A stretch of DNA of 64,000 nucleotides from Escherichia coli (lineage in GTDB: Bacteria; Pseudomonadota; Gammaproteobacteria; Enterobacterales; Enterobacteriaceae), in NCBI RefSeq assembly GCF_011045215.1, contig NZ_CP049201.1; one strand, 5' to 3'. This document shows positions 36,001 to 39,000 of this stretch, piece by piece. The first letter of the stretch is position 1. Each line of letters begins with the position of its first letter. A program made the position numbers.

Positions 36001-39000
36001 AAGTGTTCCGCTTTGCTGCGCCACTTCCGCGACCTGCATTTGCGGATCTTTGCCGTCGCGCTCCATCTGCATTGCTTTCAGGTTGCGCGCTTCAGGGCTA
36101 TTACTGTTAATGAGGGGCACATCTATTTCATCGCCCTGACGCACATTGTCAAAGCCCCGCGCAAAGGTACGAAACTGGTTCAGGCGACGTAACTCATCAA
36201 CGGTGATACCAAAGCGTGCCGCGACCGTTGATGGCGATTCCAATGCCCCCAGGGTATATGGAATAGTTTTAACATTCGGCAGGATCAGGGACGTGGCAGT
36301 ATCCGAATGCGCATGGTTAATATGCGTAGGGGCAGCGGCCATAACAGGGAATATAGTCTGTGTTATCAGGCAAATACCGGCGGTCAGACGACGTAAACGA
36401 TCCCCCAATCCACATATGGTGTTATCGCCCCGACGATCGCCATTCCCATGCGCTTTCCCTGCCATTTGTCATCCCTGTCGCTATGCGTTCAGATTAAATG
36501 ACCTTTCTTTAACATGAGGGAAAATGATGATTCATGATTAGCAAATGATGAATTCAGGTGGAAGAATAGAAATAACAACAAGATAAGAACAATACCTGAT
36601 CAAGGGTTATCAGGAGGTAGAACAGGAGAGCTTTCCCGCCAGAGCAGTAACCCCTCCTGTAAATACGTTACTTCATTTTCACCTTTGCGGTGACCAATAA
36701 CGCCGTCAGCAACATCAATGTGCCGGACAACATCAACGGCGAAGTCAGACCAATATTATCCAGCGCATAACCACCGATTGCCGCACCACAGGTATTAGCA
36801 AGCTGAATAACCGCCACCTGAATAGACCCGGCTTTTTCTGCCTGATCGGCCAGCGAGCGGGTGATCCACGTTGACCAGCCGACAGGAACCAATGCAAAAG
36901 TTAGCCCCCAGATAATCGCCACGCAGGTAGCAACGATTTTATCGCTTCCCCACAACGTCAGCACCAACGCACTCACAGCCAGTATTAACGGCGCGCCTGC
37001 TAAGGCCAGTTTTACCGAACGTTTAAGAATGAACGACGAAAGCGACGTACCGATAAAGCTGGCGATACCAAAACTTAACAGCACCAGCGTTAAGCCATCC
37101 ACACCGAATCCCGCCAGGTTCATATACACCGGGCGAATATACGTGAAGAAAGCAAACTGCCCGGCGAAAGACATGAAGATGGCGATCATCCCTGCCATCA
37201 CACCCGGACGTTGTAATAAGCGGAAAGTATTTTGTTTCTGATGCGAGGGTTCGCCTGGCAGCGAAGGCAATGATTTGATAATCCAGAAAATACACAGCAC
37301 GCCCATCACCGCCGCCGCATTAAAGACATTGCGCCAACCGATAAGCTCGCCTAAAAAACTGCCCAACGGTGCGGCAATCACCAGCGCAATAGAAACCGCG
37401 CCGAAGATCACCGACAGCGCCTTCGGCACCGTACGCGGCGGTACCAGACGCATGGTCAGCGACGCCGACATCGCCCAGAACCCGCCCAGCGCCAGCCCCA
37501 GACAGGCACGACCAATTAAAAGCAAACTGAATGAGTTAGCAAAGGAAACCAGCAAACAGGAGAGCGTCAGCAAAACGGCAAACAAAATAACAACGTAGCG
37601 GCGGTCAGTGGCCTGAATTGTCTGGGTAATAAACAAACTGGCAAACATTGCCACAAAGGCGGTCACGGTCACCGATTGCCCGGCAACCCCTTCCGAAATG
37701 CCTAAATCCTGGGCCATTGGCGTCAACAAACTGACGGGCAAAAACTCAACGATAATCAGACAGGCGACGCAAAACGCCACCGAGAAAACGGCTGACCAGT
37801 TCGGTCGGGTGATGGCATCCGCGCCGCGGTTTTCGGCAATAAATTCACTCATGGTGTTACCCGTGGCATGTTTCAGGGGAAAAGCCGACCACTTTAACAT
37901 TGAAATGTGTGACGCATTTAACGTTTTTGCAACTTTTACGGTGTTGTGGGAAAAGTTCGAGGCTGCTCGAAGAAATAAAAATCATAGGGCAAGCTGATAT
38001 GCATTTTCGCGATTGGGTTGGGAATAAGGGATAAAGTATTGCACTTGGTGATATACTTTAATAACAGGACCTCAACGATATGCGCGTGTTTAAAACCAAA
38101 TGGTTTGCAAGGGAAGCCAGGTCTCATGCAATAACAGATGAAGAGTTGTGCCGGGCCATTTTAGAAACGGAGCAAGGTAAAGCTGATGCACTTGGTGGTG
38201 GCGTTTTTAAAAAGCGCCTTCACCAAAATCGTGAGCGTGCAATTATTCTGGCAAAAGGGGGAAGCAATTGGTTTTACACGTTTTTATATGCAAAACAGGA
38301 TATGTCGAACATCAATAGTCAGGAACTGGCTGGGTTTCGTGAACTTGCAAAGCATTATGCCTTCCTGACGAAAGCCCAGCTAACAGCAATGATTAACACT
38401 AAAGAACTGACAGAGATCTGCTATGACTGCAAAAACTAAATTTAAAAGTCCTGCATTTGAGGCTATTCACAGCGCAGCGGCTGGATTGTCCAGCGTCGAT
38501 GCTATTTCTGCCGAAACGATGCGTACTTTTGACAAAGCCTGCCTGACCAGCGTGCAAGACCTACAACCTGTTGAGATAAAAGCACTGCGGGAAAAATTAA
38601 AAGTGAGTCAGCCCGTCTTCGCTCACTATCTCAATACCAGCGTTTCAACTGTACAAAAATGGGAAAGTGGCGCTAAACGCCCCAATGGCATTTCATTAAA
38701 ACTGCTCAGCATTGTGCAAAAACACGGGCTGGATGTGCTGCTGTAAATAGAACGTAGATAATGCGTCACCTACTGTCTGTTCCGATACCGGACGCGGCGT
38801 GAACGCCTTATCCACTCGACAGGTCAGGCACGGTCTGTTGGCTGATAAGACGAAGCGGTTTTAATGCAGCCAGTGAACGCCCTCGGCAGGCTGAAAGAAT
38901 GCGTAATAGCGCATCTGAAAAGCATTAATATCCTGCATTTCAGGTTCAGTTTCGCGCAGAAAACCCAGCGCCAGCCTGACCTGAGCATCGGTAATCGGCG

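Follow-up and report, generated by a model that had tools for sequence, protein, structure and literature searches.

Among the toxin–antitoxin (TA) systems described to date, ToxP/AntitoxP of Coxiella burnetii is experimentally proven; ToxP acts as an inhibitor of translation, and AntitoxP binds its toxin as well as the promoter (PMC10098735). Ribosome-dependent mRNA cleavage and growth arrest have been established for HigB2 of Vibrio cholerae (PMC5416850), which is assigned to the Pfam family PF06296 (PMC11980606) and has an active site formed by K49, R51, R64, Y82 and K84 (PMC10098735, citing Hadzi 2017). The STM3777-78 genes of Salmonella have been catalogued as a RelE-superfamily TA module (PMC4070546; also PMC3868539, retracted). 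De la Cruz 2013, which lists STM3777-78, has been retracted and its toxicity data are set aside here; a literature search on STM3777-78 found no reliable functional study.

A pair of this kind lies in the window, that is, the whole stretch of 64,000 nucleotides analysed from Escherichia coli (contig NZ_CP049201.1), inside the 1002-bp spacer between nepI and yicN. The reading that we favour, at a probability of roughly 0.8, is that the pair is an intact type II TA operon of the HigB2/HigA2 family, with a mechanism deduced from its homologues, that it is an old resident on the nepI side, and that the K-12 allele is a deletion derivative carrying a relic of it. The nepI gene, transcribed divergently from the pair, encodes purine-nucleoside efflux. 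The features of the locus are as follows (window coordinates).

36668-37858, minus strand: nepI, left neighbour, divergent; its linkage to the pair is kept across genera
37947-38786 (right edge 38785/6), no strand: segment specific to the allele carrying the pair (TA+), where the K-12-type allele has 41 nt instead; from alignment
38032-38060, no strand: candidate operator, inverted repeat TAAAGTATTGCAC-ttg-GTGATATACTTTA; core half-sites 38039-38044 and 38048-38053
38049-38057, plus strand: TGaTATACT, candidate extended -10 element that shares bases with the right arm of the operator; read from the sequence, with a poor -35
38064-38069, plus strand: ACAGGA, a Shine-Dalgarno-like motif that ends 10 nt upstream of the toxin ATG; kept at almost every locus
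38080-38439, plus strand: toxin gene, 119 aa, ATG start; HigB2-type (PF06296 'RelE' family); read as an ORF
38164-38182, plus strand: toxin codons 29-35 (ETEQGK), toxin nt 85-103; 16/19 match in the 41-nt K-12 filler
38423-38439, plus strand: overlap of toxin 3' end and antitoxin start, 17 nt
38423-38746, plus strand: antitoxin gene, 107 aa, ATG start; HigA2-type; read as an ORF
38787-38855, no strand: REP/BIME-like repeats separating the stop codons of the antitoxin gene and yicN; common to the K-12 spacer, with the right junction of the putative deletion at their 5' edge
38861-39313, minus strand: yicN (DUF1198), right neighbour, convergent

The preliminary description of this DNA had placed a toxin-first, overlapping pair at 38080-38746, and both ORFs were found there. 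ATG 38080 is the aligned toxin start in 36 of 39 Enterobacterales loci; PGAP puts the start at GTG 38086. The architecture of 119 and 107 aa with a 17-nt overlap recurs in nearly all Enterobacterales loci compared, and the two genes are paired, toxin first, in 80 of 80 related loci. Both ORFs are evidently real genes and not chance ORFs, because the toxin matches its Pfam family at E = 9e-42, dN/dS within Escherichia is 0.07-0.20 over both genes, and over 1000 public contigs encode exactly the proteins of the window. The 17-nt overlap suggests translational coupling of toxin and antitoxin. The pair is already known in the sense that RefSeq annotates it in thousands of genomes; a literature search by location, accession and O157 context found no dedicated study of the E. 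coli pair.

Regarding the family of the toxin, a Pfam search matched it to the full PF06296 profile (positions 1-120, 142.6 bits against a cutoff of 27), which is its sole match at E <= 0.1; at the same limit, there was no match to PF05015 (Rts1-type HigB), PF09907 (K-12 HigB) or PF05016 (ParE and canonical RelE). V. cholerae HigB2 also exceeds the PF06296 threshold, with 34.5 bits. The earlier label 'HigB/HigA-like' is thus apt for the gene order, whereas the family is HigB2/HigA2 (PF06296) rather than that of Rts1-type HigB. An AF2 model of the toxin (pLDDT 86.7) contains helices 80-106 and a strand at 110-115 in the C-terminal region. When this model was compared with the PDB by Foldseek, nine of the ten top matches were HigB2 chains (probability 1.0, TM 0.51-0.62), followed by Mycobacterium tuberculosis HigB1, Cami1, YoeB, YafQ and RelE; the match to HigB2 is moderate (TM ~0.55-0.6, 20% identity). 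Searches of PDB sequences with phmmer and two family profiles retrieved nothing for the toxin, so that its link to HigB2 is based on Pfam, hhalign and the fold search, of which hhalign of the toxin family against HigB2 gave a weak sequence-only link (21% probability, E = 0.001). As modelled, the toxin has the RelE/ParE (BECR) fold, with HigB2 as its nearest structural match.

In the low-probability hhalign alignment, the HigB2 residues K49, R51, R64, Y82 and K84 lie opposite identical toxin residues K44, R46, R53, Y70 and K72. BLASTP against ToxP also aligns the latter, which vary little or not at all within the family and are predicted to be active-site residues. By analogy with its tested relatives, the toxin is likely to be a ribosome-dependent mRNA endonuclease. 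A rival reading makes it a ParE-like gyrase poison, or gives it some other non-RNase activity; RelE and ParE share one fold, Pfam names in the superfamily are inconsistent (PMC11980606), and ParE structures appear in the Foldseek list. Those structures rank low, however, with probabilities of 0.25-0.38, the sole Pfam match is to the HigB2 family and not to PF05016, all five HigB2 catalytic residues are conserved, and ToxP, the nearest relative studied by experiment, is a translation inhibitor (PMC10098735). A ParE-like activity is therefore considered extremely unlikely.

The antitoxin consists of a conserved N-terminal segment (approximately residues 1-45) and a C-terminal XRE helix-turn-helix (approximately 46-102), with an HTH_3 match in Pfam at E = 7e-8. 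Its best PDB sequence match by phmmer is V. cholerae HigA2 (5jaa_A, E = 9e-10, residues 46-102), and superposition of its C-terminal domain, as modelled, on HigA2 (5j9i) gives 0.9-1.3 A, TM 0.85. Residues ~1-45 are presumed to be the toxin-binding segment. In a fused toxin-linker-antitoxin model, the N-terminal residues of the antitoxin have pLDDT values of 73-95, and the same residues are highly conserved. Assignment as an MqsA-type antitoxin was rejected, since PF15731 (26.2 bits, cutoff 30) and TIGR03830 (41 bits, cutoff 61.8) both remained below threshold and only the HTH half aligned. Taken together, Pfam, the fold search and the HigA2 sequence match uphold the initial view of a RelE/ParE-superfamily toxin with an XRE-type HTH antitoxin.

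Upstream of the toxin gene, the operator core TAGCAC-N3-GTGCTA occurs at ~40 loci from many genera at a constant distance to the start codon, and the -10 form TGnTATA(C/G)T is conserved across loci; palindrome, -10 element and Shine-Dalgarno-like motif together form a conserved footprint at these ~40 loci. A scan for consensus two-hexamer promoters upstream of the toxin found no sigma-70 promoter, and it is from this conservation that we infer an extended -10 promoter. At the 3' end, a scan for intrinsic terminators found none, and REP hairpins follow the operon instead. Positions 38790-38813 match the REP consensus with one mismatch, and 38753-38817 match the REP-derived Rfam family naRNA4 below threshold; nothing exceeded threshold in the Rfam scan of the locus.

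A mechanism modelled on HigB2 and ToxP can be proposed for the operon. The extended -10 promoter (38049-57) would give a bicistronic mRNA, from which the 119-aa RelE-fold toxin would enter the ribosomal A site and cut mRNA under translation by means of K44, R46, R53, Y70 and K72. The 107-aa antitoxin would be made by probable translational coupling across the overlap, and its N-terminal ~45 residues would wrap around and neutralise the toxin. Autorepression of the operon would follow from dimerisation of the XRE HTH on the palindrome (38032-38060) that overlaps the -10 element.

It is conceivable that the module no longer works as a TA system, the toxin being attenuated or silent and the HTH protein being kept for a regulatory function, perhaps in the control of the divergent nepI. 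In favour of this, the pair stays linked to nepI although its right-hand neighbour varies, the toxin ATG is replaced by ATA in the O157:H7 allele, and public data include truncated toxin variants. These points are set against a toxin dN/dS of 0.07-0.16 within Escherichia, which indicates that toxin and antitoxin are under equally strong purifying selection, against the intact catalytic residues of the window allele, and against the position of the operator, which lies ~180 bp from the nepI start and beside the toxin's own -10 element. Such a loss of function is considered very improbable. Slightly less improbable, though still to be doubted strongly, is that the nepI-linked module is a domesticated, vertically inherited resident, not a selfish passenger, and that its antitoxin or TA complex has been co-opted to influence nepI. 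We retain a working TA operon as the preferred reading, with the dN/dS values pointing to purifying selection on the pair.

The pair adjoins nepI in several enterobacterial genera and in cryptic Escherichia clades. This synteny was found in Escherichia sp. E1V33, E. coli E69, Citrobacter amalonaticus, Klebsiella indica, K. michiganensis, K. grimontii, K. oxytoca, K. pneumoniae and K. aerogenes, and also in Salmonella Infantis, whose pair is the counterpart of LT2 STM3777-78; the survey left aside E. albertii, E. fergusonii and S. bongori. In comparison with E69, dS is 0.24-0.31 for the pair and 0.29-0.38 for the flanks, which is of the same order; in comparison with Citrobacter and Klebsiella, dS is saturated for the pair and 1.3-2.4 for the flanks. 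A neighbour-joining tree does not unite the nepI-linked copies cleanly in a single clade, and the K. indica copy falls near a horizontally moving clade. Because clean monophyly is lacking, ancestral residency is based on the synteny and the dS comparison, by which the place of the pair beside nepI probably predates the divergence of Escherichia, Salmonella, Citrobacter and Klebsiella.

In a K-12 derivative, nepI and yicN are directly adjacent with no gene between them, as the preliminary description had stated, and the spacer measures 210 bp in place of the ~170 bp given there. Neither of the two outcomes named in advance as refuting that description, presence of the pair in K-12 and failure to predict a RelE/ParE fold, was found. 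The TA+ allele is present in 1714 of 5426 complete E. coli genomes (~32%), and the K-12-type allele in 3668 (~68%). Within the 41-nt filler of the latter, the 19-nt match to toxin codons 29-35 has all three of its mismatches at codon position 3. In a shuffle test, the same score was reached in 144 of 4000 shuffles, and score and wobble-only pattern together in 0 of 4000, by a criterion picked post hoc; on its own, the match has p ~0.04-0.05. It is a probable relic of a lost toxin gene. An alternative origin of the filler, as a homologue of the first 53 nt of the TA+ segment, was rejected after an anchored global alignment proved no better than shuffles. Since the nepI-linked pair occurs in other genera, dS resembles that of the flanks, and the filler contains this probable relic, the K-12 allele is most likely a deletion, the pair having been lost there rather than inserted in TA+ strains.

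The same locus had been described beforehand as a small single-operon insertion into a core intergenic region, a polarity that these data make probably wrong. A relatively recent horizontal insertion into the nepI-yicN spacer, with the K-12 state as the ancestral one, would accord with the mobility of the family. Horizontal movement is seen in other Enterobacterales for a ~740-bp cassette of the HigB2/HigA2-type family, which often has an integrase next to it; the cassettes of Tenebrionibacter and Edwardsiella are 94% identical over 743 bp with sharp edges and no flank homology, and further relatives are carried on plasmids. The E. coli polymorphism is also a clean two-allele presence or absence. 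On the other hand, the pair adjoins nepI in at least four genera as well as in the cryptic Escherichia clades, and its dS, which is close to that of the flanks and saturated between genera, therefore indicates no recent transfer. No direct repeats, target-site duplications or terminal repeats were found at the junctions of the segment. A perfect 10-nt inverted match (37909-18 and 38760-69) was considered as a sign of transposition and dismissed as chance, ~0.5 such matches being expected in 971 bp; its left arm lies in sequence common to K-12. Moreover, K-12 has a 41-nt replacement that includes the toxin-like relic, and a recent insertion is accordingly judged unlikely. Deletion from an ancestral nepI-linked state is preferred.

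With respect to its role, the pair may serve in anti-phage abortive infection or in the stabilisation of adjacent DNA, which would be compatible with the TA mechanism. Cassettes in other Enterobacterales lie between an integrase/AAA_25 module and variable cargo (a SIR2-HerA pair in locus L009), and the antitoxin has phage-encoded relatives (phrog_2104, E = 2e-26). At the nepI locus, however, neither integrase nor defence genes are adjacent, and the toxin matched none of the PADLOC defence-system models, so that a role of this type is regarded as doubtful.

As an ordinary member of a well-described TA family, annotated by RefSeq and with a catalogued Salmonella orthologue, the pair carries little weight by itself. 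What the locus adds is the corrected polarity, with K-12 as a probable deletion derivative bearing a molecular scar, and a clear example of a TA pair fixed at one core-genome position across genera under purifying selection, in contrast to close relatives of the same cassette that hop between integrase-borne islands. K-12, which naturally lacks the pair, would also be a suitable null host in which to test it. If the domestication outlined above were true, the ~2:1 polymorphism of loss and retention in E. coli, together with the K-12 toxin relic, would point to a real physiological trade-off.

Among the known systems, HigB/HigA of Rts1 and of E. coli K-12 (PF05015/PF09907) resemble the window pair in toxin-first order, in a RelE-fold ribosome-dependent mRNase, as predicted for the window toxin, and in an HTH antitoxin; they belong to other Pfam families with another antitoxin architecture, and the likeness is confined to gene order and superfamily. 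V. cholerae HigB2/HigA2 (VCA0468/0469; PDB 5JAA, 8A0X) has PF06296, toxin-first order and the five active-site residues in common with the window pair. HigB2 is the best fold match of the window toxin, yet the two toxins are ~20% identical and are linked through profiles or structure, whereas HigA2 and the C-terminal HTH of the window antitoxin are 39-40% identical and superpose at ~1.2 A. The C-terminal region, with its helices and strand, is longer in the window toxin than in HigB2, and HigBA2 resides in the superintegron, in contrast to the conserved core-genome position of the window pair. STM3777-STM3778 of Salmonella Typhimurium is the positional orthologue beside nepI, with proteins of 119 and 107 aa and a toxin ~70% identical; its right-hand neighbours are HPr, aldolase and PTS genes, where the window has yicN. 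ToxP/AntitoxP (CBUA0028/CBUA0027) is borne on the C. burnetii plasmid QpH1 with a role in plasmid maintenance, whereas the window pair is chromosomal, and annotated ToxP has an extra N-terminal extension of 30 aa. The two pairs share PF06296 and toxin-first order; the toxins are 31% identical over their full length, including the C-terminal helices, and the antitoxins are 55% identical over nearly their full length, including the N-terminal segment.

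Two overlapping ORFs, found exactly where the preliminary description had placed them (38080-38746), lie between nepI and yicN and share 17 nt:

38080-38439, + strand, toxin gene, ORF of 119 aa
38423-38746, + strand, antitoxin gene, ORF of 107 aa
36668-37858, - strand, nepI, left neighbour of the pair
38861-39313, - strand, yicN, right neighbour of the pair

The nepI-yicN spacer measures 1002 bp in the window versus 210 bp in a K-12 derivative (put earlier at about 170 bp), where it contains no annotated gene. Pairwise alignment with the K-12 spacer revealed that K-12 is without both genes: the two sequences are identical through 37946 and matching resumes from about 38786, an 840-bp window-specific segment corresponding to a 41-nt filler in K-12, CTTGAGCTGGAGTTAAGATCGAAACGGAACAGGGCAAAGAT.

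Over its whole length the toxin matches Pfam PF06296 ("RelE"; 142.6 bits, E = 9e-42), the sole family matched in the Pfam search, and the antitoxin carries an HTH_3 domain, which bears out the recognition of a toxin-antitoxin (TA) pair. HigB-2 of Vibrio cholerae has been assigned to PF06296 (PMC11980606), and the PDB sequence of HigB2 scores 34.5 bits against the PF06296 model. PDB sequence searches gave no matches, whether the query was the toxin itself or either of two family profiles. A Foldseek search with the AlphaFold2 model of the toxin (pLDDT 86.7) ranked the HigB2 crystal structures first (probability 1.0, TM about 0.55-0.6, about 20% identity), followed by the RelE-fold mRNases Mtb HigB1, Cami1, YoeB, YafQ, and RelE. 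In a profile-to-sequence alignment, toxin residues K44, R46, R53, Y70, and K72, which are invariant or nearly so across the family, stand opposite K49, R51, R64, Y82, and K84, the five active-site residues of HigB2 (PMC10098735, citing Hadzi 2017). Among proteins of solved structure, V. cholerae HigA2 matches the antitoxin best (E = 9e-10, residues 46-102), and the modelled C-terminal domain of the antitoxin superposes on that of HigA2 at about 1.2 A, the two being 39-40% identical. Membership in Rts1 HigB, ParE, or MqsRA was ruled out by Pfam and family-model searches; for the antitoxin, MqsA- and NadS-type models scored below threshold and covered the HTH part alone. The pair belongs to the HigB2/HigA2 (PF06296) family, displaying every sequence- and structure-level defining feature tested, and the earlier HigB/HigA-like label holds for a TA pair in this precise sense, not in that of Rts1 HigB.

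The toxin would be expected to act as a ribosome-dependent mRNA endonuclease. The N-terminal ~45 residues of the antitoxin, strongly conserved and modelled at pLDDT 73-95 with confidence only in a fused toxin-linker-antitoxin prediction, presumably pack against the toxin in the manner of HigBA2, and the C-terminal HTH dimer would bind an operator, leading to autorepression of the operon. The 17-nt overlap, which is kept across Enterobacterales together with the 119/107-aa lengths, suggests translational coupling of toxin and antitoxin. An inverted repeat lies immediately upstream of the toxin gene (arms 38032-38044 and 38048-38060). About 40 related loci, anchored at the start codon, have a conserved footprint in common: TAGCAC-N3-GTGCTA, which overlaps TGnTATA(C/G)T and is followed by ACAGGA, 10 nt ahead of the ATG. 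Its forms in the window, identified by conservation, are:

38039-38053, palindrome core, TTGCAC-ttg-GTGATA
38049-38057, candidate extended -10, TGaTATACT
38064-38069, ACAGGA

From its conservation, we read this footprint as a putative operator that overlaps a promoter of the extended -10 type; a simple two-hexamer scan gave no promoter. The operon showed no intrinsic terminator, and REP-type repeats lie downstream of it. Upstream of nepI, the block GTGACGCATTTAACGTTTTTGCAACTTTT (37909-37937), which K-12 also has and which is conserved in Escherichia, Citrobacter, and Klebsiella, probably serves as a regulatory site for nepI. Between this block and the TA operator, within the segment specific to TA-bearing alleles, sits a perfect small hairpin, TTCGAG-GCTG-CTCGAA (37955-37972); a related GCTGCTCG block is present in TA-bearing loci of other genera. 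In the O157:H7 allele (L002:2081-2083, corresponding to window 38080-38082), ATA replaces the start ATG, and the PGAP start is a GTG two codons downstream (117 aa), a start that PGAP uses even in ATG-keeping strains, the window strain included; the O157 lineage may therefore translate the toxin less.

The pair occupies the nepI-yicN site in 1714 of the 5426 complete E. coli genomes, O157:H7 included, and the K-12-type allele in 3668; no plasmid copy occurred among the 5426. The same arrangement was found in a cross-genus scan of one genome per species (the key outgroups E. albertii, E. fergusonii, and S. bongori lay outside the sample) in Escherichia sp. E1V33, E. coli E69, Citrobacter amalonaticus, an enterobacterium (L037), Klebsiella indica, K. 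michiganensis, K. grimontii, K. oxytoca, and K. pneumoniae. In Salmonella Infantis (genes equivalent to LT2 STM3777-STM3778) and K. aerogenes, the pair adjoins nepI with other right-hand neighbours. In the TA-bearing E. coli 20AR0734 (L085:2576-3476), an IS1 truncates yicN directly downstream of the antitoxin gene and ilvBN follows, which indicates an IS-mediated rearrangement or deletion at that locus.

In the preliminary description the pair looked like a small insertion into a core spacer, which would make the K-12 state the ancestral empty site. Within Escherichia, purifying selection acts on both TA genes (dN/dS 0.07-0.20), and the two have diverged at synonymous sites to a degree comparable with their flanking genes: dS is 0.24-0.31 (flanks, 0.29-0.38) versus E69 and 0.17-0.29 (flanks, 0.43-0.50) versus E1V33, and against Citrobacter and Klebsiella it is saturated for TA and 1.3-2.4 for the flanks. 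The best match of the K-12 filler (L001:1947-1987) in the TA-bearing segment is toxin nt 85-103 (38164-38182; 16/19, sense strand, colinear). The matching 19-nt stretch, GAAACGGAACAGGGCAAAG, corresponds to toxin codons 29-35; all three mismatches fall at third codon positions, and both sequences encode ETEQGK, a motif specific to Escherichia alleles. The match score alone was reached in about 4-5% of shuffles, and score and wobble-only pattern together in 0/4000, the wobble criterion having been chosen post hoc. GAAACGGAACAGGGCAAAG resembles a remnant that a lost higB2-type toxin gene left behind in reference strain K-12, and because a divergent TA-negative strain has the identical filler, it may have arisen only once. 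In combination, cross-genus synteny, selection and divergence, and the filler scar make a deletion whose right-hand junction lies at the edge of a REP element the most likely origin of the K-12 state, although nepI-linked copies form a grade rather than a single clade in a neighbour-joining tree. Divergence around the indel is asymmetric, as 7 of 78 positions differ from K-12 on the right (38786-38863, REP region and yicN 3' end) and the 88-nt left flank is identical.

Cassette comparisons indicate that the TA family also moves horizontally. At other Enterobacterales loci, the common part is only ~740 bp, running from ~70 nt ahead of the toxin start codon through the stop of the antitoxin gene, with identity up to 94-95% between families (e.g., Edwardsiella versus Tenebrionibacter or Enterobacter sp.). 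Many copies adjoin a conserved integrase (PF12835) and an AAA_25 gene; the cargo downstream varies and at L009 includes a SIR2-HerA pair (SIR2-like and HerA-like). The integrase (PF12835 + Phage_int_SAM_2) and AAA_25 immediately precede the cassette in Erwinia, Pectobacterium, Serratia, and related genera. These loci look like an integrative island with the TA pair at its edge:

L009:826-3000 and 4833-7858, integrase/AAA_25-linked cassette
L007, L008, L012, L013, L015, L023, L024, L026, L028, L029, L032, further such loci

Plasmids of rhizobia, Pseudomonas, Legionella, and others carry more distant relatives (50-57% identity), in every case with the HTH gene as partner.

Elsewhere in the window, a type III secretion-associated island (20666-36465; SycD/LcrH-like chaperone, SipB-like, IpaD/SipD-like, HilA-family regulator eilA) lies left of nepI, not the K-12 yicS-nlpA neighbourhood. 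Its consecutive long, Ig-like repeat-rich ORFs at 27678-31271 and 31228-36465 (- strand; 1197 and 1745 aa) look like two pieces of a single giant adhesin gene interrupted by a frameshift. Between adeD and uhpT, an extra sugar-utilisation island (42874-49547) encodes a LacI-family regulator, PTS IIB/IIC/IIA, a GH1 glycosidase, and a porin. It ends with another DUF1198 gene (49095-49547), which shares about 86% identity with yicN, and, in the matching RefSeq record, starts with a partial yicS-like fragment; the island is therefore bracketed by paralogues of nepI-region genes.

RefSeq already annotates the pair as "type II toxin-antitoxin system RelE/ParE family toxin" and "helix-turn-helix domain-containing protein", and the Salmonella orthologue has been catalogued as a TA module (PMC4070546); a second source on it, PMC3868539, is retracted and was left aside. 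Literature searches turned up no experimental work devoted to the E. coli pair. The TA pair is real, ordinary, and already known; only its exact family and the polarity of the evolutionary change needed correction. Its closest tested relative is ToxP/AntitoxP of Coxiella burnetii plasmid QpH1 (toxins 31% and antitoxins 55% identical, essentially full length), for which experiments revealed that the toxin inhibits translation and that the neutralising antitoxin binds both toxin and promoter (PMC10098735).
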